Assembly: GCA_002796245.1 (NCBI GenBank)
Contig: PCWT01000064.1
Span: 19,822 to 83,821, forward strand
Source of the DNA: Gammaproteobacteria bacterium CG11_big_fil_rev_8_21_14_0_20_46_22
Lineage (GTDB): Bacteria; Pseudomonadota; Gammaproteobacteria; UBA12402
Length of the DNA: 64,000 nt
Reading direction: 5' to 3'
Below, piece by piece: positions 1 to 49,366 of this stretch. A model generated the notes under the pieces. It ran no database searches. It worked only from the letters and a program-made list of their open reading frames with translations, and was not told the origin of the DNA. The translations under genes and the position numbers were made by a program. How positions within the stretch are numbered: the first letter of the stretch is position 1; every line of letters begins with the position of its first letter.

Positions 1-95
1 CTCCAGAGGCCCTGCAGAAGAAAAACCCTCGCCCAAAGCAGCGAGCGAGTTGCAGCGAAGCGTTGGTGGAAATAATGGCACAAAAAGGCTTGTGA

Positions 96-560
96 TTAGC
101 TGCGATGATACTTAGCCTGATGCGCTTGTTGCTGCTTAAGATTTTCGTCCATCGGCCTTATGCATAGTTCTAAGGTATCAAACCACGCGCAAATCGTTTC
201 GCAAGGCAAGTGCCCGTGCTTGCCGGAAACAGAGTATTCGCAAAACAACACATTGTGAAATGTCATTTCATGAATGGCTCTGATTGATTCTTGTGAGTGC
301 AGTGTGGCGATTTTTATCGAATTGACCATTTCCCCTTGTGTGCACTGTTGAAACAAGACGCTGCTGGTTTTATCTAAGGGTTTGCTAAAACGCAGTGTTT
401 GAAAATCCGCTTTAGGTTTTAGTGAGTTGAGGGCGGGCTTATCGAGTGAATAAGTGTGTCGTTGCGCTGAACATTCAAAATCATGTAAGTAAATACCGCC
501 ATGAATGTCGCGTTGCTGAACATCGCCTTGTGTAAAAGGTGTGATCAAGTAATAAGGCAT
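96..560 (-). CDS. hcp: Hcp/TssD-like type VI secretion tube protein (154 aa)
   Basis: Complete ORF with a strong SD (AAGGAGA) just upstream of the ATG. The block FQTLRFSKPLDKTSSVLFQQCTQGEMVNSIKIA lines up with the conserved Hcp1 block (LSFTKYIDKSTPNLMMACSSGKHYPQAKLT in the Pseudomonas protein, from memory). A later block, MTFHNVLFCEYSVSG ... TICAWFDTLELCIRP, resembles the Hcp C-terminal strands. The size is typical of Hcp. Confidence 0.65.
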   Translation of the reverse strand: MPYYLITPFTQGDVQQRDIHGGIYLHDFECSAQRHTYSLDKPALNSLKPKADFQTLRFSKPLDKTSSVLFQQCTQGEMVNSIKIATLHSQESIRAIHEMTFHNVLFCEYSVSGKHGHLPCETICAWFDTLELCIRPMDENLKQQQAHQAKYHRS

Positions 561-630
561 AAAAAAGTCTCCTTGAAAGTTTTTTGAGTGGGGTTAATAT
601 CGGTGTTCTATTCTTTTTTGATATTTCCCC

Positions 631-1593
631 ATGGTTTATGAAGCTTTGCACGCCTTGTATTGGCGTGTGGATGGTGTCTTGCGAGAGAGTGTTCGCAGGG
701 TGTTATCTGATAAACAGTTCGAGGCATTGTCTCAGGCTTGGCATGCATTAAGGCAGTGTGAATTCATTGAAGACGGCGTGTCGCGTTGTCGAGTGTTCAA
801 TGTGCCTGTGTTTGAGTTTGAGCGTTTGCTGTGTGATGGTCGTCATTTAAAGCGCGTGTTGGTCAGTGGTGCGTATCAGCGAGCAGGAGCGGTAGGTTTG
901 ATGTGTCTCATTGTACAGTCTGCCTTAATAAAATCAATGCGTGATCGCAGTATGCTTGCCCCATTAATCTCGCTGTCTCGTGAATCTCATTTTTTACTGT
1001 GTCTGCCGATGTCTGATGTGCGTGAAGACAGCGTATGTGGTTTGCAGTCTGAGGTGATCGCAAGATCGTTTTATTCTCATTATGAAAAGCCTGAGCATGG
1101 TTATACCTGGATCAGTGCGTGGCCTGCGTTGCTCTCATGTTTGTATCAGCGTGTGGGCAGCCAGGGTTATTTTACGCCGTCGCGCTATAGCCTGTCGTGT
1201 GAGCGGGGTGTTTTGAATCAATGTTGTTTTCGTTATATCTCAGGTGAGCTTTTGTGTGATCAAGCCTCAGGACTTTATTTGTCTGAAGGCTTAAGTTATT
1301 CGCTATCAAGTTGGTTGACTGGTCTTTTGTTTGTTCACGCATTAAAAATCATGCTGCGAAATAAAGTGGGTGTTTCGGTGTCGGCTCAAACGTTAACGCA
1401 GGACTTATCCTATTGGCTGATGGCGTATTGCCAGGATGAGTGCAGCAGTGAATCACGATGGCCTTTGCGTCACGCCGAGGTGTCTGTGCATGAACAGGCT
1501 GACGGGTTTAGGCTTGTCGTTAAGTTAGTGTTAAGTGATGGCGTGAAAATGAATGTTGAGTGGGTGGTGGATCATGAAAACCGGGCCTTATGA
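631..1593 (+). CDS. Cys-rich hypothetical protein (320 aa), first gene of the T6SS-like operon. The C-terminal ~60 aa are weakly gp25/TssE-like.
   Basis: Long ORF with only short ORFs on the opposite strand. It is divergent from hcp and overlaps the next ORF. The C-terminal pattern RWPLRHAEVSVHEQADGFRLVVKLVLSDGVKMNVEWVVD resembles the EPRL...V.V...dg.L.f.I end of gp25-family proteins, but this is a weak visual match only. No SD precedes the ATG. Confidence 0.55.
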   Translation: MVYEALHALYWRVDGVLRESVRRVLSDKQFEALSQAWHALRQCEFIEDGVSRCRVFNVPVFEFERLLCDGRHLKRVLVSGAYQRAGAVGLMCLIVQSALIKSMRDRSMLAPLISLSRESHFLLCLPMSDVREDSVCGLQSEVIARSFYSHYEKPEHGYTWISAWPALLSCLYQRVGSQGYFTPSRYSLSCERGVLNQCCFRYISGELLCDQASGLYLSEGLSYSLSSWLTGLLFVHALKIMLRNKVGVSVSAQTLTQDLSYWLMAYCQDECSSESRWPLRHAEVSVHEQADGFRLVVKLVLSDGVKMNVEWVVDHENRAL

Positions 1594-3022
1594 TCGTTAT
1601 TATGATGTGATACTGCGTCAGCACACAGTGCCATTGCCGGCGATGATGGTGCTTGCACCCTCAGCAATCGATGAACCCATGGCGATTAATTGTGAGGATC
1701 ACTTTGAAGTGGGGGGTGCCATTTTTCGAGCCTTGTATCCTGTCAGTTGTCAGCCAATTGAATTGCTTGAGCTTGAGGTATTGCCGCAATCTCTACGCTT
1801 TCATTGTCGATCAACAGCGCATTCTGAGACTTGCTTGACGGCGTTTGATATGATGATCCGAGCAAGCCCTGAGCTAGCTTACCCCTGCCTTGATGCTTTG
1901 CTGCATCGTCGTGCTGACAGTGACTCTGATGAGGCGGGTCAGCTCATTGATTGCACCCTAAGAAGCAGTTTATCGGGTGGGCGCTTGTTGCCAAGCTCAG
2001 TCTGTTTGGCCAGTCCCTGGGTCTGGCTTCGAGAGCTGTTTCTATTCCCTGAAAAAGACCTGTGTTTGACGCTCACGCTTAATCCTATCATGGTTTCACC
2101 AGGTGAGGCGTTTAGTGTGTCGGTGCGGTTTTCCGAGCCTTTGCCTGAGCTACTTTTGAGTTTATCAGTGAAAGATTTTCTGTTTAACGCTTTTGCTGTT
2201 GCCAATCATTTTATCAAAGTGCCCGAAATGGCTGAGGCCGATTCGGGTGATGTCTGCTTTCCTTTGCGTTTTTTAGATGAACCCGGTGCTTCTCGTCTGT
2301 CGGTGCTTGATGTATGGGATGTTTGTTTTTCTGATGAGCAAGGGCAGGTTATCTCGAACATTTCCCCATTTTGTGCGCCGAACATATCGGTGGGTGATCA
2401 GCCTGTTTGGATCTTGCATCACGATACTTCTGTGTCTGAAGTGGCTTGGTGCAGTGAGCTGCGGCTGGAGTCATTTGAGAGCTTTTCAGGCCGGGTACAA
2501 ATGAAGGCGCTCGTCACACAGCCTAATGTCTTGTTTAATCCTCAGCGTTCTTTTCGGGTTCAACACAAACCGAGTCAAACAATCTTCACGACTTGCGAAG
2601 TATTCCGCCCTTTGCAGCGTATGTGGCTCGCAGACAGGCTGAGATTTTCATTGTGGTATGCACTGGCAGGCTGGTCGATTTTATTTTCATACGGTGAACA
2701 CCGCGAACGTCTGCTTGCTCTGTTACGCTGTTTTTTACCGGGGAATAAGTGCTGCGCCCTCGATGAGGGTGTCGTGTCTTTTCTGATGTCACCTGAGCAT
2801 CACCGCGTAGATGCGGCTTCCTTGTCTTTTTGTGTTGCAGGGTTTCGCGCACGTTTGGTGGTTAATGAGCGTGTGCTGGGTGAGGATTTTGTTTACAGGC
2901 TGGCTTTGTTTTTACGGGAGTTTCTGTTCTCAAGTGTTTTAGCTATGCCAGTTCTGTGTTTTGAGTTGCATTACTTGGGAAAAAGTCAGCTTCGGGAGTG
3001 GTTAGCTGATGTCAGCATTTGA
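1574..3022 (+). CDS. Divergent, short TssF-like baseplate protein (~482 aa)
   Basis: The ORF runs 1553..3022. I prefer the ATG at 1574 because a GGTGG SD lies 5-9 nt upstream, and it overlaps the upstream stop by 20 nt. AIFRALYPVSCQPIELLELEV resembles the TssF N-terminal LYPhylrPiPS block. GFRARLVVNERVLGEDFVYRLALFLREFLFSSV resembles the TssF C-terminal G.ev.L.ld...F.g.g.fLf..vLerFf block. Confidence 0.5.
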   Translation: MKTGPYDRYYDVILRQHTVPLPAMMVLAPSAIDEPMAINCEDHFEVGGAIFRALYPVSCQPIELLELEVLPQSLRFHCRSTAHSETCLTAFDMMIRASPELAYPCLDALLHRRADSDSDEAGQLIDCTLRSSLSGGRLLPSSVCLASPWVWLRELFLFPEKDLCLTLTLNPIMVSPGEAFSVSVRFSEPLPELLLSLSVKDFLFNAFAVANHFIKVPEMAEADSGDVCFPLRFLDEPGASRLSVLDVWDVCFSDEQGQVISNISPFCAPNISVGDQPVWILHHDTSVSEVAWCSELRLESFESFSGRVQMKALVTQPNVLFNPQRSFRVQHKPSQTIFTTCEVFRPLQRMWLADRLRFSLWYALAGWSILFSYGEHRERLLALLRCFLPGNKCCALDEGVVSFLMSPEHHRVDAASLSFCVAGFRARLVVNERVLGEDFVYRLALFLREFLFSSVLAMPVLCFELHYLGKSQLREWLADVSI

Positions 3023-3722
3023 GTGCTATTGTTTGGCGCATGTACCAAGCCTATCTTTGACGGCTTTATACCGGCGCCTGCGTTATATGGGCTATGAGAT
3101 TGATGTGTGTTTTGTCGATGCGCATGAGGCTGTTTGTGACATTCATTCGATCACCTTTGATAAACACCGTCGAGTGTTGATTCGAAGCTATCGTAAACTT
3201 TCTCGTCAATGTTTGGAGGCCAGTCTGGATTATGATGTTTTGGTCTCGAGCGAACAGTGTATTTGGCAAGGTATGGTATCGGATGAGTCACTCTTTGCGC
3301 TTGCGCAATTTGAGCGAAAGCTTTCGGTGGTGAAAAATTGCAGTCGTGAGACGCTGGCGCAGCGCTTGTCTGAGCTTTTCTCTGCCCGTTTTGCGAGCGT
3401 GTCGTCTTTTCATTTAGTGTCATACGATCACTCAGGCTCGGCCTGGCAGTTTCCAGATTTTTTGCTCGGTTCTTGGCGGTTGAGTCCTTGGTTGTCGTTG
3501 AAGGTGAGCCTTCAGGCTTGCCGAGAGCCCGGGGTGTTTGTGCGGCCAATTTTTTGCAAAGCGCTCTTAAAAAGCCTGGGCGTGCTTTTTCCTTTTGTGC
3601 GGGAGTGGGTGTTTGAGGTGAGCTTTTCGTCGACGTGTGCTTGGCGCTTGGGTGAGTCGGCTGGTGTGTTATCGGGCGCCCCTGGATTTTTTGTTCAAAA
3701 AATAAACGCATTTCAAGCCTGA
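3009..3722 (+). CDS. Divergent, short TssG-like baseplate protein (237 aa)
   Basis: The ATG overlaps the upstream stop by 14 nt, and a GGGAG SD lies about 10 nt upstream. The pattern LAQRLSELFSARFASVSSFHLVSYD...FLLGSWRLSPW...LKSLGVLFPFVREWVFEVSFSS...WRLGESAGVL follows the TssG layout (L..yf.g..v.v..f.g.W ... LG ... l..lvr.y.g..l.f.l.l ... LG). This is a visual match only. Confidence 0.45.
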   Translation: MSAFECYCLAHVPSLSLTALYRRLRYMGYEIDVCFVDAHEAVCDIHSITFDKHRRVLIRSYRKLSRQCLEASLDYDVLVSSEQCIWQGMVSDESLFALAQFERKLSVVKNCSRETLAQRLSELFSARFASVSSFHLVSYDHSGSAWQFPDFLLGSWRLSPWLSLKVSLQACREPGVFVRPIFCKALLKSLGVLFPFVREWVFEVSFSSTCAWRLGESAGVLSGAPGFFVQKINAFQA

Positions 3723-3793
3723 AAAAGGGCTGTACATTGGCGCTAATCATGCTGATAATAGATTTTTTTAATGAGTCAATGGAGGGGAGTCTC

Positions 3794-4126
3794 ATGAAAA
3801 AGCAACATCCTTGGTTTCACGTTTTATTTATTGCGATCGCTGTTATCGGTTTGCTCACCGACAAAGGCCTAATCTTCTTAGTGGGTCTAGTGTGTGAAAT
3901 CATTTACTTGTGGCGTATTTATCAGCAGAAGAAAACGCCGGCTGCTTCAGACAAGCCTGCCCATAAAGCGAAGCCTGCTGCTGCGACTCACGACAAGCCA
4001 AAGGTGGAGAAAACGCATCAGCATCAGGCTCAGAATGAGTCAAAAGATCACCTGGCGGCGGGTCATCAACAACAAGACCATCAGGGTGAACATCATGATG
4101 ATCAACACCATGATCAGCAAAAGTAA
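3794..4126 (+). CDS. Small two-TM membrane protein with a His/Gln/Asp-rich C-terminal tail (110 aa)
   Basis: The ATG at 3794 is preceded by a GGAGGGGA SD. Two hydrophobic segments (FHVLFIAIAVIGLL and LIFLVGLVCEIIYLW) are followed by HQHQAQNESKDHLAAGHQQQDHQGEHHDDQHHDQQK. An intrinsic terminator follows. Confidence 0.6.
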   Translation: MKKQHPWFHVLFIAIAVIGLLTDKGLIFLVGLVCEIIYLWRIYQQKKTPAASDKPAHKAKPAAATHDKPKVEKTHQHQAQNESKDHLAAGHQQQDHQGEHHDDQHHDQQK

Positions 4127-4146
4127 CTGCTTGTGTTATGTGTAAA

Positions 4147-4179
4147 GGCCGAAGTGATTCTTTTCGGCCTTTTTCTTTT
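4147..4179 (+). terminator. Rho-independent terminator closing the T6SS-like operon
   Basis: The stem is GGCCGAA (4147-4153) paired with TTCGGCC (4163-4169). A T-run follows at 4170-4179. Confidence 0.8.
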
Positions 4180-4191
4180 GTGGTTTGATAA

Positions 4192-8073: not shown

Positions 8074-8808
8074 GTGGCCTTCATGGTAAAGTTAGAATCG
8101 GTATTACAGTTTGCGGCAGGTGATGAGCGTTATGAGCGCATTAATGCTTTTCCTGTCACGGTGTATGCGAAGGACGGTACGGGCCGTTATCTCGCGGGTA
8201 ATCACTGTATTTCACGCTTGGCGGGCTTAAGTTCTGTCTCTGATCTATTAGATAAAACGGATCGTGAGCTTTGCTGGGGTGCGAGTTTTGATACCTTGAT
8301 CGCCAATGATCATGAGGTTATGGATCGAGGTGAGGCTTTGTTTCGTATTGAGCCTGTGGTGGATGCTCTGGGGCATGCGGTGAATATGTTGTCCTTGAAG
8401 CTGCCTGTTCAAAACTTGGCCGCAGAGTGTGTCGGTGTGCTGGGTATTTCTTTGAACCCCCTGGATTACAGGGCTTCAGACTTTTTTGATATGGTGGCCC
8501 AAATTGCTCAAAGCTTTGGTGCCAAGCAAGACTTACCTCAGTTTGCTCAGGCTGGTGCAGCGCCTGTGGTCGATGCTCGAGAAATCCTGTTAAAACGTTT
8601 AACCCCTAGAGAACAAGACTGTGTGCGATGTTTGGTCAAGGGCATGAGCGCCAAGGAAACCGCGCAAGTTTTGAATTTGTCGTATCGCACCATTGAAGTC
8701 TATTTCGAAAAAATCAAATCCAAGCTCGGTGTGCACAAGAAAACCGAGATTCTAAGCTTGTTGTATGACAACGAAGCCTTACTGCTTAACGAAACGTCGT
8801 TTAAATGA
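8074..8808 (+). CDS. LuxR/FixJ-family transcriptional regulator with an N-terminal PAS-like sensor domain
   Basis: The C-terminal HTH is LTPREQDCVRCLVKGMSAKETAQVLNLSYRTIEVYFEKIKSKLGV. The N-terminal ~120 aa have a PAS-like layout (VYAKDGTGRYLAGNHCISRLAGL...DKTDRELCW...DHEVMDRGEAL). The start may be the ATG at 8083 rather than the GTG at 8074. Confidence 0.8.
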   Translation: MAFMVKLESVLQFAAGDERYERINAFPVTVYAKDGTGRYLAGNHCISRLAGLSSVSDLLDKTDRELCWGASFDTLIANDHEVMDRGEALFRIEPVVDALGHAVNMLSLKLPVQNLAAECVGVLGISLNPLDYRASDFFDMVAQIAQSFGAKQDLPQFAQAGAAPVVDAREILLKRLTPREQDCVRCLVKGMSAKETAQVLNLSYRTIEVYFEKIKSKLGVHKKTEILSLLYDNEALLLNETSFK

Positions 8809-10411: not shown

Positions 10412-11950
10412 GTGCAACACGATACGATCATTGTTTTAGATTTTGGTTCACAGTACACACAGCTCATTGCCAGGCGTGTGAGAGAGCTTGGTGTGTATTG
10501 CGAGCTGTATCGTTATGATGTCGATGAGGCTGTGATACGGGCGTTATCCCCTAAAGGTATTATTTTATCCGGTGGGCCAGAAAGCGTGACGCTGGATCAT
10601 ACGCCACGCTCACCGCAATGGGTGTTTGATTTAGGCGTGCCGGTGCTTGGTATTTGCTACGGTATGCAAACCATGGCGGAGCAATTGGGCGGCAAGGTTC
10701 AAAGCGCTGCGGTTAGTGAGTTTGGTCATGCTGAGATTCAGCCCATGGCGGCGAGTCCTTTGTTTGGTGCGCTTAAAAATTTGAATGTTTGGATGAGTCA
10801 TGGCGATCAAGTAATAGAGGTGCCGCCAGGTTTTTCGGTGACGGCAAAAACCGCTGACGTGCCGATTGTTGCGATGGCCGATGAGTCGCGCAAACTTTAC
10901 GGCGTGCAATTTCACCCCGAAGTCACGCACACACCCGATGGCCAAGCTTTTTTGTCTGCTTTTGTACAAGAGCTTTGTGGTGCAGGTGCAAACTGGACGC
11001 TGGACAATATTATTGATACGCAAATTGCGCTGGTGCGCGAAAAGGTCGGGCGCGATCAGGTGTTGCTCGCATTATCTGGCGGCGTGGATTCATCGGTGGT
11101 TGCCATGCTCTTGCATCAAGCCATTGGTGAACAGTTGGTCTGTGTGTTTGTCGACACGGGGCTTTTGCGTTATCAAGAAGCCGAGCAGGTGATGGCAACG
11201 TTTTCTGAACATCAACATATTCGTGTCATCAAAGTTGATGCGCGCGAGCGTTTTTTTGAGGCTTTAAAAGGCGTCAGCGATCCTGAAGAGAAGCGCAAAG
11301 TGTGCGGTAAATTGTTTATTCGGATTTTTGAAGAAGAGGCGAGCAAGCTTAAAGGGATAAAATGGCTGGCGCAGGGTACGATTTACCCGGATGTGATTGA
11401 GTCGGCGGGCAACAGTACCCAAGCGGCGCACGTGATTAAATCACATCATAATGTGGGCGGTTTGCCCGAAGACATGCATTTAAAACTGATTGAGCCATTG
11501 CGTGATTTGTTTAAAGACGAAGTGCGCAAACTCGGTGTGAAGCTGGGCTTGCCGCACGCCATGTTGTATCGCCACCCTTTCCCGGGGCCGGGGTTAACGG
11601 TGCGTGTCTTGGGTGAGGTGAAGCCTGAGTCTGTCGAGATTTTGCAAAAGGCAGATCATATTTTTATTGAAGCACTGCGTGAGCACAATTTATATGACGC
11701 TGTTAGCCAGGCGTTCGCGGTATTTTTACCGGTGAAGAGTGTGGCGGTAAAGGGTGATGCGCGCGCGTATGAGTACGTGATTGCTCTGCGTGCGGTGGAA
11801 ACAGTGGATTTCATGACAGCCACTTGGGCAGAATTGCCGCACAGTTTTTTAGCGAAAGTCTCCAGCCGCATCTGCAATGAATTAAAGCATGTTTCTCGCG
11901 TAGTGTATGATATTACGGGCAAGCCACCGGGTACGATTGAGTGGGAATAA
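10412..11950 (+). CDS. guaA: GMP synthase (glutamine-hydrolysing)
   Basis: Contains [24 protein letters not shown], the GATase motifs GICYGMQ and VQFHPE, the ATP-PPase loop SGGVDSSV, and the C-terminal [10 protein letters not shown]. The GTG start lies 2 nt after the guaB stop. Confidence 0.97.
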
Positions 11951-12403
11951 ATGAAACCGCGTGACGAAGAATTTATGCACGAAGCCTTGGCGCAAGCGCG
12001 CTTGGCTGAACTCGCCGGTGAAGTGCCGGTCGGCGCGGTGCTGGTGAAAGAGGGTCATATCATCGCCAAAGCCCATAATCAGCCGATTAGCGAATGTGAC
12101 CCCACAGCCCATGCCGAGATTCAGGTTTTGCGCCAAGCTGCTAAAGCCTTGGGTAATTATCGCCTGCTGGACACCACCTTGTATGTAACCCTAGAACCTT
12201 GTGCAATGTGCGCCATGGCTTTGGTGCATGCTCGGGTTAAACGGCTGGTGTTTGCGGCTAGCGATCCGCGTACGGGTGCTTGCGGCAGCGTGTTTCAGCT
12301 TGCCAGCAATGAAGCCTTGAATCATCGTTTGAGTATTGAGTCAGGTGTGTTGGCAGAGTCAGCCTCATCACTGCTTCAGGCTTTTTTTAAGTCGCGACGC
12401 TAG
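11951..12403 (+). CDS. tadA: tRNA adenosine(34) deaminase
   Basis: Zinc motifs HAEI and LEPCAMCAMAL are present, and the gene abuts the guaA stop. Confidence 0.93.
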   Translation: MKPRDEEFMHEALAQARLAELAGEVPVGAVLVKEGHIIAKAHNQPISECDPTAHAEIQVLRQAAKALGNYRLLDTTLYVTLEPCAMCAMALVHARVKRLVFAASDPRTGACGSVFQLASNEALNHRLSIESGVLAESASSLLQAFFKSRR

Positions 12404-12427
12404 AAAGCCTTTTTTATTGCCGCTACA

Positions 12428-13570
12428 ATGAGTCATCTAAAAGGATCGTGTTCAATGACAGGGACCATCGAGTTTCAACAAACCAGTGCTGAGCTCTCTG
12501 TTGTATTGGCAGGTGAGATGACTAAGGCGACGGTGCCGGCTTTGTGGGCTGAGTTGCTTGCTCATGCCAAAATGCCTCACCCGGCCCAGCTTTCCATTGA
12601 TGTGTCCGCGGTGTCTCATTACGACCTTGCGGGCCTTATTCTCATTGACTCTATCCCCAGTTTTTTTTCGGCGCCAAAGCCAGTTATTCAGGGTGCAGAT
12701 CAGGCCTTACTCGATGGCTTAAAGCGCGTTGAACCCGAGGTAAAAAAAGCCGAGACCCTGGAAAAGAAAAAAATATTTGCCAGTATTCCAAGTGATATGG
12801 GTCGCGCAACTTTGTTTATTGTGGATCAGGTTTGCCAGAATTTAATTTACACGGGCGCAGTTTGTCATTTTCTTTGGCAGGCGATTAGGCGTCCGAAGCT
12901 TTTACGTTGGCGTGATGTGTTTCGTGTCATGGAAGATACGGGGCCGAATGCCTTGCCGATCATTGCTTTGCTCGGTTTTATTATTGGTTTAATTTTATCG
13001 TTTCAAGCCAGTGTTCAGTTGCAAAAATTTGGTGCGACGATTTTTGTCGTAAACCTTGTGGGCATTAGCTTGGTGCGTGAGCTCTCGGCCTTGTTCACAG
13101 CGATTATTTTAGCGGGGCGCACGGCCTCTTCGTTTGCGGCTGAAATTGGCACGATGAAGGTTAACCAAGAGTTGGATGCGCTGTCGACCATGGGCTTATC
13201 TTCTGTGCGCTTTTTGGTCATACCGCGCGTTATTGCAGTGACATTGATGCTGCCTTTGCTCAGTATCTTTATGAGTTTTTTTGGTTTGCTAGGTTGTGCG
13301 GTGTTTATGCGGGCAACAGAAGTGCCTTGGGAGATTTTCTTGCGCCAGCTTGAAGGCGCAGTAACCATGGGTGATTTTTGGGGTGGTTTGTTCAAGGCGG
13401 TTGTGTTTGGCATCTTGGTTGCAGCGATCGGCTGTGCCAATGGCTTGAAAACCGGCAATGGTGCAAGCGCAGTGGGTCAGTCCACCACGCGTGCGGTGGT
13501 GGGGACTATCGTCACATTGATTGTGGTCGATGGTTTGTTTGCGGTTTTATTTTACTGTTTGAGTTTATGA
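12428..13570 (+). CDS. MlaE/YrbE-family ABC permease with a fused N-terminal STAS-like domain
   Basis: The N-terminal ~100 aa (IEFQQTSAELSVVLAGEMTKATVPALWAELL...IDVSAVSHYDLAGLILI) look like an anti-sigma-antagonist/STAS fold. The C-terminal ~260 aa carry MlaE motifs (VRELSALFTAIILAGRTASSFAAEIGTMKVNQELDAL). Confidence 0.85.
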   Translation: MSHLKGSCSMTGTIEFQQTSAELSVVLAGEMTKATVPALWAELLAHAKMPHPAQLSIDVSAVSHYDLAGLILIDSIPSFFSAPKPVIQGADQALLDGLKRVEPEVKKAETLEKKKIFASIPSDMGRATLFIVDQVCQNLIYTGAVCHFLWQAIRRPKLLRWRDVFRVMEDTGPNALPIIALLGFIIGLILSFQASVQLQKFGATIFVVNLVGISLVRELSALFTAIILAGRTASSFAAEIGTMKVNQELDALSTMGLSSVRFLVIPRVIAVTLMLPLLSIFMSFFGLLGCAVFMRATEVPWEIFLRQLEGAVTMGDFWGGLFKAVVFGILVAAIGCANGLKTGNGASAVGQSTTRAVVGTIVTLIVVDGLFAVLFYCLSL

Positions 13571-14328
13571 GCAAGACGATGATTACAGTGAACGATTTGG
13601 TCGTTAGCTTTGGCGAAAAGCGTGTTCTGGACCGTATTTCCTTCGATGTAAGGCCTGGCGAGGTGTTTGTCATCCTCGGTGGTTCTGGTTGTGGTAAATC
13701 GACTTTATTGCGTCACTTAGTGGGTTTGCGTGAGCCGCAAGGTGGACAGATTATCATTAATGGCCATGATATTACGACTGACAGCTTAGAGAATATGGAT
13801 AAGGCGATTGAAAGTTTTGGTGTGATGTTTCAATCGGGCGCATTATTTGGCTCAATGACCTTGCTTGAAAATGTGCGTTTACCGCTAGAGGAAAAAACCG
13901 AGCTGCCACGCAAAGTGATGGATGAAATGGCGGCCCACAAGCTGCGTCAAGTGGGGCTTGGGGATTTTTTGCATTATGTGCCGGCTGAAATCAGTGGTGG
14001 GATGCAAAAGCGTGCGGCCATTGCACGTGCGATGGCGCTGGATCCGCCCATGTTGTTTCTGGATGAGCCGTCTGCTGGTTTGGACCCCATTACCTCGGCT
14101 AAGCTTGATGAGCTGATTCTAGAGCTTTCAAAAACTTTGGGTGTCACTTTTGTGGTGGTTTCGCATGAATTGCCGAGTATCTTTGCTATTGCAGATAGGG
14201 TCATTATGTTGCAAGATGGAAAAATTGTGGCCGAGGGCGATCCGCGGGATCTGCGAGATCATTGTGAACAACCTTTTGTGCGACAATTTTTTCATCGCGA
14301 GTCAGATAAGGCCAGTGTGAATGGATAG
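13567..14328 (+). CDS. MlaF/Mkl-like ABC transporter ATP-binding protein
   Basis: ATGA overlap with the permease stop. Walker A is GGSGCGKST, the signature is ISGGMQKRAAIARA, and Walker B is LFLDEP. Confidence 0.92.
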   Translation: MSKTMITVNDLVVSFGEKRVLDRISFDVRPGEVFVILGGSGCGKSTLLRHLVGLREPQGGQIIINGHDITTDSLENMDKAIESFGVMFQSGALFGSMTLLENVRLPLEEKTELPRKVMDEMAAHKLRQVGLGDFLHYVPAEISGGMQKRAAIARAMALDPPMLFLDEPSAGLDPITSAKLDELILELSKTLGVTFVVVSHELPSIFAIADRVIMLQDGKIVAEGDPRDLRDHCEQPFVRQFFHRESDKASVNG

Positions 14329-15091
14329 CCGACGAGAAACAGATTATTTTCGCATAGGGGTGTTTGTCGTCATTGCCATCGCGTTGATCGTTATCGCCAT
14401 TTTTGCTTTTACGGCAGGTAATTTATTTTCTTCACGCCTTTATGTGGAAACGTATTTCAATGAATCAGTGCAAGGGCTTTCGCCGGGTTCTGTTGTCAAG
14501 TATCGCGGTATTGATATTGGTGAAGTGAAGAAAATTAAACTCGTTTCGGCTGAGTACAATTTGCCTGAAAATGAAATGAATTCGAAGTTCGGCCGTTATA
14601 TTTATGTTCTACTTTCTTTGGATCCGCATTTTATGCCGGGGTTAACGACGAAAGAGTTGGCTGATACCTTGCGTGAAGATGTGGATGAGGGCTTGCGCGT
14701 TAAGATGAGTTTGAAAGCCTTAACGGGGGGCGCGTACGTTGAGCTTAATTTCGCAGATCCCGGTCAAGCGCCGATGCTGCCGATTTTATGGAAGCCACGT
14801 TATTTGTACATTCCCTCTGAAACCAGTACGTTGACGCGCGTGGGTGACAGTGTGCAGGATATTTTAAACGGTTTGAGCAAGGTGGATTTCCAGCGTTTAT
14901 TCACGAATATGCAGGACTTGGTGACGCGAAGTAATACCTTGGTCACAAAAGTCGATAACCTGTTGGATCGCACGCAAGATGGTGTGGTCGCCACGGTGAA
15001 TAATACACAAGCGATTACGTCTAGGCTTCGTAGCAGCCCGTCAAGTTTGTTGTTTAGTAAGCCTCAGCAAGTTAACCCGAGGGATTTATGA
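14321..15091 (+). CDS. MlaD/MCE-domain substrate-binding protein
   Basis: An N-terminal TM segment is followed by an MCE core (VQGLSPGSVVKYRGIDIGEVKKI). The gene overlaps the upstream gene by 8 nt. Confidence 0.85.
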   Translation: MDSRRETDYFRIGVFVVIAIALIVIAIFAFTAGNLFSSRLYVETYFNESVQGLSPGSVVKYRGIDIGEVKKIKLVSAEYNLPENEMNSKFGRYIYVLLSLDPHFMPGLTTKELADTLREDVDEGLRVKMSLKALTGGAYVELNFADPGQAPMLPILWKPRYLYIPSETSTLTRVGDSVQDILNGLSKVDFQRLFTNMQDLVTRSNTLVTKVDNLLDRTQDGVVATVNNTQAITSRLRSSPSSLLFSKPQQVNPRDL

Positions 15092-15702
15092 TGCGATGGT
15101 TAATGCTACCGGTTTTGTTGGCAAGCGTATTACTTTCGGCTTGTGTGAATTTTGGCGATAATTTGGCGCCGCAAAAAACCTACATGCTCGCTGTGCCTGC
15201 CCGTCAAACCCCTGAGAAAACACTCACGAAAGCGACACTCTCTGTGTCAGAAATATCAGCGGCCGCACCGTATAATATGAACTCTTTTATTTACCGTGTG
15301 AGTCAGTCGCAATATCTTAGCGATTATTTTCATGTGTTCATGGTGAATCCGGGTGAGCAAATGACGGACTTGTTCTCGCGTTATTTTGCTGGTCAAGGTT
15401 TGTTTGAGAATGTCAGCACATCGGGCACGCAGGTGTTAAACCCTGACTATACCCTGCAAGCGCGCATTTTGGATTTGTATGCCGATTATCGTGATCGTAC
15501 CCATCCAAAAGCAGTGTTGTCTTTGCGTGTTAAGTTGTATTATGGTCAAAATCATTTATTGAAATTAAATCATGTCTTCACGGCAATCACGCCCTTGTCG
15601 GATAAAACCAATCCGGCTTTGGTGAAGGCTTGGGATGCGGATTTGTTGAAGATTTTATCCCAATTAAGTGTCCGTGTTCGACACGTAGTCCTTGAGTCGT
15701 AG
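15088..15702 (+). CDS. ABC-type transport auxiliary lipoprotein (PqiC/YmbA-like)
   Basis: It has a lipobox signal peptide (LLASVLLSAC), is about 200 aa, and is the fourth gene of an Mce-type operon with a 4-nt overlap. Confidence 0.7.
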   Translation: MMRWLMLPVLLASVLLSACVNFGDNLAPQKTYMLAVPARQTPEKTLTKATLSVSEISAAAPYNMNSFIYRVSQSQYLSDYFHVFMVNPGEQMTDLFSRYFAGQGLFENVSTSGTQVLNPDYTLQARILDLYADYRDRTHPKAVLSLRVKLYYGQNHLLKLNHVFTAITPLSDKTNPALVKAWDADLLKILSQLSVRVRHVVLES

Positions 15703-15785
15703 CTATAGCCCACCTCATACTGTGTTGCAAGCTCATTCATCATCGGTCATGTGTTTCTCTGATAACCTGGGAACACAAAACCCGC

Positions 15786-15907
15786 CTGGCCTTGAGTGTT
15801 GCGTGTCCTCATTTCAAGGACGCCATAAACCCATCCCTGGGGGCTCTGGGTTCGGCTTCCTGCCTCACACAGCCTTGAAATGAGGACACGTAAATCTAGC
15901 GGCCAGG
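15786..15907. repeat. Long imperfect palindromic intergenic element
   Basis: A perfect 17-bp inverted repeat: GTGTCCTCATTTCAAGG (15803-15819) pairs with CCTTGAAATGAGGACAC (15873-15889). The outer arms are CTGGCC and GGCCAG. Confidence 0.7.
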
Positions 15908-15942
15908 CTACGTAAGACGGTATAAAATAAAAAAGAGATTGA

Positions 15943-15970
15943 TAAAAAAAGCCGGTCAGTGACCGGCTTT
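15943..15970 (-). terminator. Rho-independent terminator of the rpsP-rimM-trmD-rplS operon
   Basis: Stem AGCCGGTC / GACCGGCT. On the minus strand a T-run follows it (the complement of the A-run at 15944-15950). Confidence 0.8.
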
Positions 15971-15975
15971 CGAGA

Positions 15976-16350
15976 TTATTTCTTGTCGCCTTTCTTTTTC
16001 TTGTGATCAATGCGCTCTTTAATGCGCGCAGAACGACCACTGCGTTCACGAAGGTAATACAAGCGAGCTTGGTTTACATCGCCTAAGCGGTCAACACTGA
16101 TGGTGTCGATCAAAGGGCTGTGTGTTTGGAATGTACGTTCAATGCCTTGGCCGGCAGTGATTTTACGAACGATGAAGTTAGAGTTCACGCCGCGGTTACG
16201 TTTGCTGATGACAACGCCAGTAAAAGCCTGTAGACGCTCACGCTCACCTTCTTTCACTTTGACTTTCACAGTCACTGTGTCGCCTGCGCGAAATTTAGGG
16301 ATGTCGGTACGCATCTGTTCTTGTTCAAGTTGTTGGATAATGTTGCTCAT
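15976..16350 (-). CDS. rplS: 50S ribosomal protein L19
   Basis: [43 protein letters not shown] is the canonical L19 sequence. Confidence 0.97.
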
Positions 16351-17093
16351 TACTGTTTACCTTGTTCGTCAATAAATTCGTTTAATAACGTCGTTTGCTC
16401 TTTGCTCAATGTGAGCTTATCGAGCAGGTCTGGCCGCTTGAGCCAGGTCATCCCGAGAGCTTGTTTTTCACGCCAACGCGCGATCGCCCCGTGATTGCCG
16501 CGCAATAATACATCAGGAACCCCTTGATCTGCAAGCTTTTCTGGTCGAGTGTAGTGAGGATATTCCAACAAACCTTGGCAAAAGGAGTCTTGCTCGGCTG
16601 ATGTGTTGTCGCCTAGGGCGCCGGGCATCAGGCGCAGGCAGGCATCGATGACGGCCATGGCCGGAATTTCACCACCGGTGAGGACAAAGTCGCCGATCGA
16701 AAGCTCGGCATCAATGTCGGTTTTTAAAAGCCTGGCATCAATGCCCTCATAACGACCGCAGAGTAGTATCCACGGACCAGATTTACTCATTTTTTGAGCA
16801 ACGCCTTGTGTGAATGGCTCGCCTTGGGGGGAGAGGTAGATCACCTTGGCTTGTTCGCCAAGCGAGGTTTTTGCCGCAGTAATCGCTTTGCGCAAGGGCT
16901 CAACTTTCATGAGCATGCCGGGCCCGCCACCATAAGGCTTGTCATCCACTGTGCGGTGTTTGTCGTCGGTATAGTCTCTAGGGTTGAAAAAATGCAGCTC
17001 GGCGAGAGGTTTGTCTAAAATTTTGCCGGTGATGCTGTGCTTGAGGGTTTCAAACATCTCAGGAAACAGCGTAATCAGGCCGATGTTAAGCAT
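16350..17093 (-). CDS. trmD: tRNA (guanine37-N1)-methyltransferase
   Basis: [14 protein letters not shown] ... [12 protein letters not shown] ... [12 protein letters not shown]. The start at 17093 overlaps the rimM stop. The ORF-track start at 17162 is too long. Confidence 0.95.
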
Positions 17094-31952: not shown

Positions 31953-32762
31953 GTGACAGACGGGGGTAATATCATTGAGGTCAAGGACTTGACCTTTAGG
32001 CGTGGGCGGCGAAAGATTTTCAACCGTATTTCCATGGTGATTCCTCGCGGGAAAATTATTGCTGTTATGGGCCCAAGTGGTACTGGTAAAACGACCTTAT
32101 TGAAGCTTATCGGTGGACAATTGGCTCCTGAGCACGGTCATATTCTATTCAATGGTAAAAATGTCCACGAGCAATCGCGCCACGATTTGTTCGAGCTTCG
32201 CAAAAGCATGGGCATGTTGTTTCAAAGCGGCGCCTTGTTCACCAATTTAAGCGTGTATGATAATGTGGCTTTCCCTTTGCGCGAGCATACGAACTTATCC
32301 GAAGCCCTAATTCGCACGTTGGTACTCATGAAATTACAAACGGTGGGTTTGCGCAATGCGCGATTTTTTATGCCGAATGAATTATCAGGTGGTATGGCCC
32401 GGCGTGTGGCATTTGCGCGCGCGATTGCGCTCGATCCTGAGGTGATCATGTACGATGAGCCTTTAACAGGGCTGGACCCGATCTCGATGGCCATGCTGTT
32501 ACGCTTGATGAAAAAAATTAATGAGACCTTGGGTTTGACTAGTATTATCGTTTCACATGATGTTAAAGAGGTCGCAGGTATTGCTGACTATATTTACGTC
32601 TTGTCTGAGGGTAAAGTCATTGGCGAAGGTGATGGCCAGACGATGTTGAAAAGCAACAACCCTGAGGTGAAACAATTTATGCACGGCTTGCCCGATGGCC
32701 CGGTGCCGTTTCATTACCCAGGCTGTGAGTATTTGCGTGACTTGATGGGGGATGAAATATGA
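31953..32762 (+). CDS. mlaF: Phospholipid ABC transporter ATP-binding protein MlaF
   Basis: GTG start. Contains [23 protein letters not shown] and IMYDEP. It is the first gene of a canonical five-gene mla operon. Confidence 0.93.
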
Positions 32763-33538
32763 CCTTTGTCGAGAGTTTGGGCCGCATGGCAATTTATTTT
32801 TGCTGGCGTGTCGGTGTAGCAGGGCTTATTCTTTTTCGTTCGATTATTCGAAAGCCTGACTTTAAACATGGTTTTGTTGAGTTAGTCGGCCAGCTGTATT
32901 CCGTGGGTGTGTTATCGCTTGTGATTATTGTGGTCTCGGGTTTGTTTATTGGGATGGTGGTTGGCCTTCAAGGCTATAATACGCTCGATAAATTTGGCGC
33001 CACACAAGCGCTGGGCCAGCTTTTGGCTTTAAGCGTGGTGCGCGAGTTAGGTCCTGTGGTTACAGGTTTGCTGTTTGCTGGTCGTGCAGGCTCTGCGCTT
33101 ACTGCGGAAATTGGTTTGATGAAGGCGACAGAGCAATTGTCCGGCATGGAAATGATGGCTGTTGACCCTTTGCATCGCGTCATCGCGCCGCGTTTTTGGG
33201 CCGGCTTTATTAGTATGCCCTTGTTGGCGATTATTTTTTCGGCCGTGGCTATTTATGGCGGTTATTTGGTCGGTGTAAAGTGGTTGGGTTTGGATGCCGG
33301 CTCGTTTTGGTCGAACATGCGAGGCTCAGTGGCATTTGGCGCCGACCTGATGAATGGGGTCGTCAAAAGCATTGTGTTTGGTTTTGTGGTCGTTTGGATC
33401 GCCGTGTTTCAAGGGTATGAGTGTGTGCCCACTTCAGAAGGCATTGGCCGTGCCACAACACGCACGGTGGTGTTTTCATCACTCGCTATTTTAGGCTTAG
33501 ATTTTATATTAACCGCAATGATGCTCGGGGGCTGGTAG
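32759..33538 (+). CDS. mlaE: Phospholipid ABC transporter permease MlaE
   Basis: 259 aa, with [35 protein letters not shown]. It overlaps mlaF by 4 nt. Confidence 0.93.
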
Positions 33539-33539
33539 C

Positions 33540-34058
33540 ATGCAAAAGCAACGTGTGACTGAAATGGTCGTGGGAATATTTATTATTATCGCGATTTTGT
33601 GTTTTATTTTTTTGGCGTTTAAGGTCAGCGGCTTGACGTCTTTTTCGCATGCCAATACCTACAGGGTGAAAGCTGAGTTTCAAAACATTGGTGATTTGAA
33701 AGTGCGTGCGCCAGTGACCATCGCAGGTGTGGCCATTGGCCAGGTTTCGCACATTGATTTAGACCCGGAAACCTATCAAGCGGTCGTGACAATGAAAATT
33801 GCTCAGAGAGATCAAATTCCTGTGGATTCGACAGCGAATATTTTCACGGCAGGTTTGATTGGTTCTAACTATGTGAGTATTACGCCAGGCTTTAGTCCGG
33901 TGTTTGTTAAGAACGGCGGCAATATCTTGCGCACGAACCAAGCAATGATTTTACAAGACGTGATTGGTCAGCTACTGTTTAGTTTAAAGGGCGGTGATGA
34001 TAAAGCCGATGATAAAGCGAAAGCATCGACATCAACAGTGAAGGATGGGGTAAAATGA
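33540..34058 (+). CDS. mlaD: MCE-domain protein MlaD
   Basis: A TM anchor plus LKVRAPVTIAGVAIGQV. Confidence 0.9.
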   Translation: MQKQRVTEMVVGIFIIIAILCFIFLAFKVSGLTSFSHANTYRVKAEFQNIGDLKVRAPVTIAGVAIGQVSHIDLDPETYQAVVTMKIAQRDQIPVDSTANIFTAGLIGSNYVSITPGFSPVFVKNGGNILRTNQAMILQDVIGQLLFSLKGGDDKADDKAKASTSTVKDGVK

Positions 34059-34681
34059 GACGTTTGAAAAAAATTATTTGCACAGTGTTGTGTGGCTTAA
34101 GTGTCTTAGGATTTTCGGCCACGCCTAATCCGACCACTATGTTAAACACTATGACTCAGCAATTGTTGTCATCGTTAAAGCAAAATCGCGCCAAACTCAA
34201 AAGCCATCCGACCTTTGTTTACAGCTTGGTCGATAAGATTTTATTGCCGCATGTCGATAAAGTCACAATGGCGCAATCAGTGCTGGGTCGACAAGGTTGG
34301 ATGCGGGCTACGCCGGCTGAGCGCAAAGCCTTTACGGATGAATTTACCAACACAGTCATTCGCACGTATGCATCAGCACTCAATGCGTATACCGATGAAA
34401 CGGTGAAGTATTTTCCGATTCGCGGTGGTTATGAAGGCAAGCAATTTGTGCAGGTCAACAGCCAAATTGTGCGCCCGGATGGTCCGCCAGTGCCAATCAT
34501 CTACAGCATGATTTTAAAGGGTGAGGCTTGGAAAGTGTTTGATATGAATGTGGAAGGCATCAGTCTTTTGCAAAGCTTCCGTTCGCAATTTTCCGCACAA
34601 CTGTCACAAGGCATGAGTGTGGCGAGTATTATTTCAAACTTGAAAGCACACAATCAAAAAATTGGCGTGAAGAAATCATAA
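34055..34681 (+). CDS. mlaC: Periplasmic phospholipid-binding protein MlaC (Ttg2D family)
   Basis: It has a signal peptide, is about 200 aa, and shows the pattern LLPHVDKVTMAQSVLGRQGW. Its position follows mlaD. Confidence 0.85.
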   Translation: MRRLKKIICTVLCGLSVLGFSATPNPTTMLNTMTQQLLSSLKQNRAKLKSHPTFVYSLVDKILLPHVDKVTMAQSVLGRQGWMRATPAERKAFTDEFTNTVIRTYASALNAYTDETVKYFPIRGGYEGKQFVQVNSQIVRPDGPPVPIIYSMILKGEAWKVFDMNVEGISLLQSFRSQFSAQLSQGMSVASIISNLKAHNQKIGVKKS

Positions 34682-34684
34682 TCT

Positions 34685-34981
34685 ATGGCTGAGTTAAGCT
34701 TTGACAACAACACGCTGTCGCTCAAAGGCGATATCACTTTTCAAACGGCCACCGCGTGTTATGAATCGGGCCTTGCCCATTTTCAAAAAGGCCGGGCCTT
34801 AGTCGTGGATTTCTCTGGGATCGAAAAAGTCGACAGCTCTGCTTTGGCTGTTTTGCTCGCCTGGCTTAAAGAGGCTAAAATCCGCGAGGTCGCGCTCAGT
34901 TATCGCGCGCTACCCGCCTCGCTTAAACAACTTGCCGCCTTGTGCGAGTTAACCATGGTGTTTAATACGCTCTATACCTAA
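34685..34981 (+). CDS. mlaB: STAS-domain protein MlaB
   Basis: 98 aa with a STAS layout (VVDFSGIEKVDSSALAVLLAWL). It is the last gene of the mla operon. Confidence 0.85.
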   Translation: MAELSFDNNTLSLKGDITFQTATACYESGLAHFQKGRALVVDFSGIEKVDSSALAVLLAWLKEAKIREVALSYRALPASLKQLAALCELTMVFNTLYT

Positions 34982-48475: not shown

Positions 48476-49366
48476 TTAATTGTATAAATAGTACGGATTG
48501 TGGTACTGCAATGTTTGTTTGATCGTGTTCGGGTTGTCCAGTTCTGTGTTGCGCTTAATCAAGTACGCTTCATGTTGCAAATAAGCATCGCGTTGGAAAA
48601 CGTAAGGGTCGATGGCCGCGCTGTCGTACACATCTTGAAAGCCTAAAAGCTGCACGCGCTCGTCCAGCAAGTCCCAAGCATAGAGACCTAAGCTTGCATA
48701 CCAGGGGGTGATGTAGCCGTAGATCGTCATATAGCGAATGTTAATGGCGCCACCAATCATGCTTCTGACCGTACCGGGTCCGAACACGGGTAGTACAAAA
48801 TATGCCGAATCAGACCAGCCCCATTTAGCCAGCGTTAGGCCGAAGTCTTCTTCGTTTTGCATGAGGCCAATATCGTGAGCCGGATCGTACAAGCCTGCGA
48901 TACCCACGGTTGAGTTTACCGCAAAGCGCCAGCCGTCTGATGAGGCTTGGTAAAAGTTGCCTTGCAGTACATCGTTGATCACTGCTGGGATATTGCGCAG
49001 ATTCTCAAAGGCGTTGTGGATCATGTGGTTTAAAGGCTTTGGCATCACGCGGTCATAAAACGTAGCCACCGGTTTGGCGACGTATTTATCGAGCTTGGTA
49101 TTAAAGCGCGTCATTGAGCGATTGTACTGAATGTAAGGGTCGTTGACTTCGTGGGTTTGTTCTAGTGAATCATTATGCACAGTCACAGCCTCGGGTAGGT
49201 TGAAACCACCGGCGTAAGGATCCGCGGCGGCCGCTTCTACTGCGGCGTCACTGGTGTGTGCGGTTGACGTGGTGACTGCGGTTGTTGCAGGCGCTGGCGT
49301 CGCAGGGGTGTTTGCAAAAGCTGATAGGCTTAAACTTGTTAGAAAAATCAATCCAATGCGACGCAT
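48476..49366 (-). CDS. mlaA: MlaA/VacJ-family outer-membrane protein
   Basis: The core is NDPYIQYNRSMTRFNTKLDKYVAKPVATFY ... NLRNIPAVINDVLQGNF. It has a signal peptide, but the protein contains no Cys at all, so there is no lipobox. Confidence 0.88.
   Translation of the reverse strand: MRRIGLIFLTSLSLSAFANTPATPAPATTAVTTSTAHTSDAAVEAAAADPYAGGFNLPEAVTVHNDSLEQTHEVNDPYIQYNRSMTRFNTKLDKYVAKPVATFYDRVMPKPLNHMIHNAFENLRNIPAVINDVLQGNFYQASSDGWRFAVNSTVGIAGLYDPAHDIGLMQNEEDFGLTLAKWGWSDSAYFVLPVFGPGTVRSMIGGAINIRYMTIYGYITPWYASLGLYAWDLLDERVQLLGFQDVYDSAAIDPYVFQRDAYLQHEAYLIKRNTELDNPNTIKQTLQYHNPYYLYN

Follow-up and report, generated by a model that had tools for sequence, protein, structure and literature searches.

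A candidate four-gene derivative of the type VI secretion system core in a gammaproteobacterial lineage

The stretch analysed here (the window: 64,000 nucleotides, positions 19,822 to 83,821 of contig PCWT01000064.1, assembly GCA_002796245.1, Gammaproteobacteria bacterium CG11_big_fil_rev_8_21_14_0_20_46_22) carries near its left end, at about 50-3722, a four-gene cassette that would descend from the core of a proteobacterial type VI secretion system (T6SS) operon. The cassette consists of an hcp-like gene and, divergently from it, three overlapping open reading frames (ORFs). These encode shortened homologues of the sheath large subunit TssC (ORF1, mini-TssC) and of the baseplate-wedge protein TssF (ORF2, mini-TssF), followed by a fast-evolving protein in the position of TssG (ORF3). 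We give about an even chance to the reading that the four genes form an isolated, conserved and selected derivative of the T6SS core, reduced and non-canonical. The initial annotation had already proposed a T6SS-related module of strong divergence, in which hcp faces away from three overlapping ORFs, and this is borne out by a T6SS signal well in excess of chance, with Pfam matches above the cut-offs and profile-profile probabilities of 96.5-99.7%. The ORF coordinates, ORF sizes and Hcp motif quoted there all agree with the ORF list of the window.

The hcp product was matched by Pfam T6SS_HCP (PF05638) with E = 1.9e-12 and 48 bits against a cut-off of 23.5, residues 11-129 aligning to positions 8-124 of the 129 in the profile. 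Profiles of canonical proteins were derived from 11 annotated plasmid-borne T6SS loci and compared by hhalign with alignments in which each window protein was combined with its homologues. The Hcp family aligned with five canonical Hcp proteins at 96.5% probability (E = 9e-10) over 137 columns (2-138 to 4-142). The cut-off of the narrower NCBIfam model TIGR03344 was missed (23.7 vs 58.9).

ORF1 had first been taken for a TssE, usually a protein of about 130-190 aa, that is unusually long and has a gp25-like C-terminus. It reached 38.8 bits with Pfam VipB_2 (PF18945; cut-off 27), which is, by its Pfam description, the gp25-like C-terminal domain of TssC, and gave no match to GPW_gp25 (PF04965). 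Among PDB sequences, TssC, VipB and IglB were matched at both ends of ORF1 (residues 7-43 to TssC 68-104 and 234-288 to 400-458), and the ORF1-family profile matched TssC, EvpB, IglB and VipB chains with E = 8e-20 to 1e-11. Comparison with canonical TssC by hhalign gave an end-to-end match (99.6%, E = 6.8e-24, query 5-299 to template 67-461), while 10 TssE proteins gave a probability of 0.1% and no aligned range. Further, the TssC-specific N-terminal helix of the ILHxxxFQxLExxW type is present in ORF1, and a homologue of 358 amino acids (aa) in a relative (L010, see below) matches both Pfam VipB (PF05943) and VipB_2. A word-indexed homology search with ORF1 returned only ORF1 itself, and no PHROG matched mini-TssC. 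As judged from these alignments, ORF1 is a shortened TssC sheath subunit and not a long TssE. The gp25-like domain seen at the outset is real; it is the VipB_2 domain of TssC.

Mini-TssC has 320 aa compared to about 490 in canonical TssC. Relative to the canonical protein, the first 63 or so residues are missing, as are five internal segments of 11, 37, 10, 8 and 26 aa (about 92 in all), and the NCBIfam model TIGR03355 does not reach its cut-off on ORF1 (36.1 vs 271.5 bits). In Pseudomonas aeruginosa TssC1, residues 1-65 comprise the N-terminal helix H1 and a loop of the outer domain 3, and in canonical TssC the ATPase ClpV docks on a helix in the N-terminal region (PMC5807055). By alignment, mini-TssC has lost the ClpV-docking N-terminus. 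Without this handle, recycling of the ClpV type would not be expected.

ORF2 was matched by Pfam T6SS_TssF (PF05947) with 30.6 bits (cut-off 25), and the ORF2 family aligned with 11 canonical TssF proteins at 99.7% probability (E = 3.5e-26, query 6-489 to template 72-603), in keeping with the earlier naming of the second ORF as TssF-like. The family profile also found TssF in the PDB (6giy_A, E = 0.019), and the NCBIfam equivalog cut-off was missed (21.5 vs 260.3). With 482 aa compared to about 600, mini-TssF lacks about 69 N-terminal residues and two segments of 15 aa. In the wedge, the three-helix stem is formed in part by the helical N-terminus of TssF (PMC6300606). In mini-TssF part of this stem-forming region is gone, and at most its distal part may remain. 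The alignments place ORF2 as a TssF homologue, with collinearity over both the central beta-barrel and the C-terminal domains. Relatives of ORF2 are very few: when 1.84 billion representative proteins were searched exhaustively with it by HMMER, only two other clusters at the 50%-identity level came up (28% and 23% identity), so that this very rare family has three such clusters among these proteins.

ORF3 occupies the TssG slot. Its start overlaps the stop of the tssF-like gene by 14 nt in the window, 17 nt in L012 and 31 nt in L010, and in the canonical loci tssG lies directly 3' of tssF in all 11, overlapping it in 10 of them. In enteroaggregative Escherichia coli the ordered part of TssG comprises residues 122-365, and TssG has a TssF-like C-terminal fold with two TssK-binding loops (PMC6300606). 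The length of ORF3 is close to that of this ordered part. ORF3 gave no match in Pfam, NCBIfam, PDB, PHROGs or PADLOC, and four homologues gave no Pfam or NCBIfam match at E <= 10. Comparison of the ORF3 family with TssG, TssE and the C-terminal domain of TssF by hhalign gave nothing significant; against TssG the probabilities were 0.1-3.3%, the best being that of the L010 homologue (P = 0.013). Of the initial assignment to TssG, the position, the overlap with tssF and the size stand, and sequence or profile similarity was not found. A separate observation was made in L029, a canonical T6SS locus (GCA_027450225.1). There, a 360-aa gene overlapping the tssF stop (11779-12861) has no Pfam match, and a second, Pfam-positive TssG is encoded 3.5 kb downstream at 15301-16392. 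Proteins in the TssG slot can thus escape profile detection even in ordinary clusters.

The cassette is known from four lineages (the window, L010/L011, L012 and L013), and a fifth (L015/L016) is without it. In the three other cassette lineages it lies at the same chromosomal site, just 5' of a small gene (ORF4) and the gene of a POT-family peptide permease. L012 and L010/L011 show the order of the window, with hcp on the minus strand, mini-TssC (314 and 358 aa in L012 and L010, respectively), the TssF-like protein (492 and 497 aa), ORF3 (234 and 265 aa), the small membrane protein and POT; the hcp homologues of L010 and L012, in the same divergent position, are partial. Start and stop codons overlap at both junctions in all three complete loci (window, L010 and L012). 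L013, a closer relative found through ORF4, holds the 3' half of the cassette from the middle of tssF onwards. The N-terminal truncations of TssC and TssF are common to all lineages, which indicates that the reduction predates their divergence. Alignments of the TssF family and of POT found no match in the genome and metagenome contig collections scanned; since POT was not matched either, the lineage is evidently absent from these collections. A search of the literature found no description of a comparable remnant cassette; the nearest case is the partial, multi-locus T6SS of a Legionellales symbiont (bioRxiv 10.64898/2026.04.11.717937).

The cassette proteins diverge much faster than those encoded next to them. 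Between the window and L013, protein identity was 65% for the C-terminal part of the TssF-like protein and 52% for ORF3, compared to 80% for ORF4, 93% for POT and 96% for the methionine aminopeptidase Map. Between the more remote lineages, identity falls to 20-29% for the cassette proteins, as against 61-71% for POT and 76% for Map. Mini-TssC is 20-26% identical within the clade, while canonical TssC is 32-60% identical across alpha-, beta-, gamma- and epsilonproteobacterial loci. Altogether, the cassette genes evolve about 5-10 times faster than the neighbouring genes.

The fifth lineage defines the limits of the unit. In L015/L016 the C-terminus of a fadD-like synthetase is followed, after 126 bp and on the same strand, by an ORF4 homologue (P0009) and POT, and neither hcp nor ORF1-3 is found between fadD and POT on these contigs. 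The window organism has a gene left of hcp to which this fadD C-terminus is 71% identical (E = 2.7e-12). ORF4 lies directly 5' of the POT gene in all five lineages, with or without the cassette. Its 47 N-terminal residues are 51-89% identical across them, its tail is variable and rich in His, Gln and Lys, and it has its own ribosome-binding site, GGAGGGGAG. ORF4 therefore belongs to a fadD-ORF4-POT backbone, and the T6SS-derived unit consists of exactly four genes. The initial view that a His-rich membrane protein ends the T6SS operon had to be given up accordingly. A role of ORF4 in metal binding or in association with the permease is possible. The L015/L016 lineage is the most distant as judged by its POT and ORF4; either the cassette was acquired before the lineages that now carry it split, or the L015 lineage has lost it.

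Selection was assessed by the ratio of nonsynonymous to synonymous substitution rates (dN/dS, Nei-Gojobori method) between the window and L013. It was 0.14 for the C-terminal part of the TssF-like protein and 0.31 for ORF3, compared to 0.09 for the ORF4 N-terminus, 0.07 for Lnt, 0.03 for POT and 0.014 for Map; the ratios are rough because dS is near saturation (1.2-1.9), and clearly below 1 despite this. The proportions of nonsynonymous and synonymous differences (pN and pS) were 0.22-0.29 and 0.60-0.69, respectively, and the alignments are without gaps (311 and 233 aligned residues for the TssF C-terminal part and ORF3). All recovered cassette copies are open in the four lineages, L013 covering only the 3' part of tssF and ORF3. 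Open reading frames, dN/dS below 1 and the absence of indels together indicate that the genes are kept by selection, far less tightly than their neighbours. The composition of the proteins is unusual. Cys makes up about 3-4.6% of the cassette proteins, with only the partial Hcp of L010 having none; the housekeeping proteins of the window have about 1.2% and canonical T6SS proteins 0.6-1.1%. The cassette proteins are also rich in Ser and poor in Lys, and the Cys positions are not conserved between lineages. We read the Cys enrichment as a drift in composition that weak constraint allows on a coding strand rich in G+T.

The cassette is surrounded by housekeeping genes. The left flank was read from longer contigs of the same organism, an uncultured Gram-negative bacterium probably from groundwater of Crystal Geyser, 10 kb beyond hcp, and encodes two acyl-CoA synthetases (AMP-binding), a chagasin-type inhibitor, lpxK, msbA, comEC and a porin. 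It had been expected that the rest of the system would lie to the left, which is refuted within that range. Downstream of ORF4, the strong terminator is followed by the housekeeping genes POT, Map and Lnt, and no ClpV follows the cassette, as had been observed at the outset. The other 60 kb of the window contain guaBA, mla, lpt, rpsP-trmD-rplS, icd, hisS, der, glnA, hfq-hflX, purA and recG, together with a few ORFs that have no Pfam match. No further T6SS gene was recognised by Pfam within 10 kb to the left and 60 kb to the right of the cassette, and TssA, B, E, J, K, L and M, VgrG and ClpV all have no gene in this range. The window ORFs without a Pfam match gave no T6SS signal, including those of 635 and 907 aa. 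In every lineage recovered, tssB is absent from the cassette and its flanks. A mobile element was considered and dropped: no convincing direct or inverted repeats flank the cassette, no tRNA and no Rfam elements accompany it, and its base composition resembles that of the surroundings.

The canonical order tssB-tssC-hcp-tssE-tssF-tssG is seen in L029 and in the plasmid loci. From such an operon, the cassette may have arisen by a single reduction before the cassette lineages split, the four genes having been retained by selection since. Overlapping start and stop codons could couple the translation of mini-TssC, mini-TssF and ORF3. The TssF-like protein and ORF3 probably still make a wedge-like heterotrimer, which would engage mini-TssC via the retained gp25-like C-terminal domain, and also Hcp rings, with Hcp serving as the tube. 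The outcome would be a pared-down assembly of tube, sheath and wedge. The cassette alone cannot be a firing T6SS, because TssB, TssE, spike, TssK, membrane complex and ATPase are all missing from it. A repurposed, largely stand-alone role is slightly favoured over dependence on unlinked canonical partners. Taken further, the four genes would be a self-sufficient minimal apparatus, with a TssB-less and ClpV-independent mini-sheath, an Hcp tube and a TssF/ORF3 wedge, which works without spike, TssK and membrane complex in a non-secretory or non-canonical role; this fuller version we hold to be rather unlikely.

Several points weigh against a selected, stand-alone derivative. The dN/dS analysis covers two of the four cassette genes, because hcp and mini-tssC have no close relative, and its ratios suffer from the saturation mentioned above. 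ORF1 has no recognisable Shine-Dalgarno sequence. The non-conserved Cys residues and the stepwise length differences (358/320/314 aa) look like ongoing erosion. ORF3 shows no demonstrable relation to TssG in sequence, and its assignment by position and size is tentative. Single-sequence AlphaFold models of ORF1 and ORF3 (predicted local distance difference test, pLDDT, of 40.5 and 38, respectively) were too poor for a fold search. Finally, the search for T6SS genes covered about 74 kb around the cassette, and tssB, vgrG, tssK and tssJLM may lie elsewhere. The N-terminal helix by which TssC of canonical sheaths bundles with TssB is still present in mini-TssC. In all solved sheaths, TssB strands interlace with TssC and complete its fold (PMC5807055), so that a TssC without TssB may not fold or polymerise, and an unseen TssB partner is argued for.

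These last observations lead to the alternative that the cassette is a fragment of a complete but scattered T6SS. Its four proteins would do their canonical jobs, and TssB, TssE, VgrG/PAAR, TssK, TssA and TssJLM (with ClpV/ClpB) would have their genes elsewhere in the genome, possibly diverged beyond recognition by Pfam. The retained TssB-bundling helix and the purifying selection on the cassette genes speak for it. Partners could escape recognition through divergence, as ORF3 does in matching nothing, and partial T6SSs spread over several loci have been reported from a symbiont of the Legionellales (bioRxiv 10.64898/2026.04.11.717937). However, no other T6SS gene was found in the range searched, tssC has been parted from tssB, and the ClpV-docking N-terminus, about one third of TssC and the N-terminus of TssF have been lost. 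Mini-TssC also evolves faster than canonical TssC, which is unexpected for a working contractile lattice, and the cassette behaves as a discrete four-gene unit of presence or absence. A canonical contractile lattice is hard to reconcile with so extreme a rate, with the truncations and with tssC standing apart from tssB, and we consider a scattered complete system possible, if somewhat unlikely.

Alternatively, the four genes could be functionless, slowly decaying leftovers of a lost T6SS. Shortened proteins whose lengths vary by lineage (for ORF3 265/237/234 aa, as for mini-TssC above), very fast divergence, the drift to a Cys- and Ser-rich, Lys-poor composition, the missing ribosome-binding site of ORF1 and the absence of the cassette from one relative would all fit. 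Yet, all recovered copies have stayed open in four lineages at saturated divergence, and by our own estimate about 480 codons would remain free of stops by chance with a probability of about 1e-10 per gene. The excess of pS over pN, the lack of any indel between the window and L013, the start/stop overlaps kept at both junctions of the three complete loci and the strong Shine-Dalgarno sequence of hcp point the same way, and decay appears quite improbable. Scarcely credible is the model in which an atypical TssE/TssF/TssG wedge trio has its sheath, spike and membrane complex encoded directly beyond the left edge of the window. The gene order does resemble tssE-tssF-tssG, and by the Pfam description of VipB_2 the fold of the ORF1 C-terminal domain is of the gp25-like class. 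Nevertheless, ORF1 aligns with TssC over residues 2-312, including the TssC-specific helix, neither the TssE profile (0.1%) nor GPW_gp25 supports the model, and no T6SS gene is present in the 10 kb on the left side.

T6SS gene sets without core components are usually dismissed as debris. Here, shared truncations, a single site, a relative with the empty site and purifying selection suggest long-term retention of only the genes for tube, sheath large subunit and wedge. If the cassette works alone, it would be the smallest known T6SS-derived module and would contain a sheath protein that functions without TssB; a self-sufficient apparatus would constitute a new class of contractile-injection-system derivative. 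If unlinked partners are needed, the system would be a T6SS fragmented and diverged to an unusual degree. In both cases, the cassette is a natural experiment on the dispensable parts of TssC and TssF.

The features of the locus are listed in Table 1. For ORF2 an alternative ATG lies upstream at 1553 and would give 489 aa; the homologues favour the ATG used here. The overlap of ORF1 and ORF2 is 20 nt. The hcp gene is preceded by the Shine-Dalgarno sequence AAGGAG 8 nt 5' of its ATG. In the divergent intergenic region one sigma-70-like match was found, on the plus strand at 573-600, and it is a consensus match only. On contig L001, hcp and the fadD-like gene converge, their stop codons lying 271 bp apart, and the hairpin 3' of hcp falls within this spacer. 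The same spacer holds an imperfect inverted repeat of 33 nt, 76% complementary and with a 42-nt spacer (L001 10524-10631), one arm of which corresponds approximately to window 5-37; it may be a bidirectional terminator.

Table 1. Features of the cassette and its borders, with ORF4 homologues in related loci
Feature	Position	Strand	Size	Remarks
Terminator-like hairpin with T-run	28-49	minus		Directly 3' of hcp; consensus scan
hcp	96-560	minus	154 aa	Hcp/TssD-like tube protein; contains motif LRFSKPLDKTSSVLFQQCTQGE
hcp/ORF1 divergent intergenic region	561-630	.	70 bp	Presumed promoters
ORF1 (mini-tssC)	631-1593	plus	320 aa	Shortened TssC/VipB sheath large-subunit homologue
ORF2 (mini-tssF)	1574-3022	plus	482 aa	Shortened TssF baseplate-wedge homologue
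ORF3	3009-3722	plus	237 aa	Fast-evolving protein in tssG position
ORF4	3794-4126 (alternative start 3737)	plus	110 aa	Protein with two transmembrane segments and His/Gln-rich tail
Intrinsic-terminator-like hairpin, strong	4144-4172	plus	11-bp stem	With T-run; precedes POT permease gene
ORF4 homologue, L010	3849-4202			
ORF4 homologue, L012	3670-4014			
ORF4 homologue, L013	1707-2036			
ORF4 homologue, L015	234-599			

Some further features of the window were noted. The whole 64 kb contain no tRNA genes and no Rfam family at gathering score. In the first 12 kb, GC skew is positive in nearly all 500-nt bins and the genes are mostly on the plus strand, which suggests a position of the window on the leading strand of one replichore. 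A transcription regulator of the PAS-LuxR/GerE type is encoded 4 kb 3' of the cassette (8074-8808, plus strand), between lnt and guaB. Two distinct gene sets for Mla-type lipid transport are present on the plus strand, one at 12428-15702 (MlaE/ABC/MlaD and an ABC_trans_aux lipoprotein) and one at 31953-34980 (MlaF/E/D/C/B), with a separate mlaA at 48476-49366. Between the mla operon and hisS, two large ORFs without a Pfam family lie next to each other on the plus strand (35119-37026, 635 aa; 37148-39871, 907 aa). The 907-aa ORF has a sub-threshold ankyrin-repeat match, a hint of a eukaryote-like effector and of life in association with a host.

Among the known systems close to the cassette is the canonical T6SS of subtype i. 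Its Hcp, TssC and TssF are homologous to and collinear with the cassette proteins, and in canonical loci (L017-L027 and L029) tssC precedes tssF, which is followed by an overlapping gene, in the same order as in the cassette. In contrast to these loci, tssB, tssE, clpV, vgrG, tssK, tssA and tssJLM are not found nearby, hcp is inverted, TssC and TssF are shortened to the lengths given above, and the protein in the TssG slot is unrecognisable. The NCBIfam equivalog cut-offs for canonical T6SS proteins are missed by a wide margin. The T6SS of the Francisella pathogenicity island (subtype ii) is likewise highly diverged and is not known to have a dedicated ClpV. Its sheath protein IglB (3j9o_B) is among the PDB matches of the mini-TssC profile (E = 5e-12), but the best matches are TssC/EvpB of the subtype-i type. 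IglB is also full length (506 aa), and the Francisella island encodes a full machine with IglA/TssB, VgrG, the TssK-like IglD and a membrane complex.

Mini-TssC shares with the sheaths of R-type pyocins and phages the lack of the N-terminal element used by ClpV. Pyocin sheaths consist of domains 1-2 only and are not recycled (PMC5807055). Unlike them, mini-TssC is clearly derived from TssC; it matches no PHROG, and no tail genes (tape measure, spike, gpJ/gpI) lie near the cassette. An incomplete T6SS complement is also found in orphan hcp islands and in host-associated bacteria such as 'Ca. Centrionella anaeramoebae' (Legionellales), whose partial T6SS is without ClpV, TssA, TssE and TssL. Of the 13 core genes it retains 8, spread over three loci, and TssB/C, VgrG and TssJKM are among them (bioRxiv 10.64898/2026.04.11.717937). 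The cassette described here differs from that of Centrionella in comprising four genes, in its shared truncations, in having a relative with the empty site and in the purifying selection measured on it.

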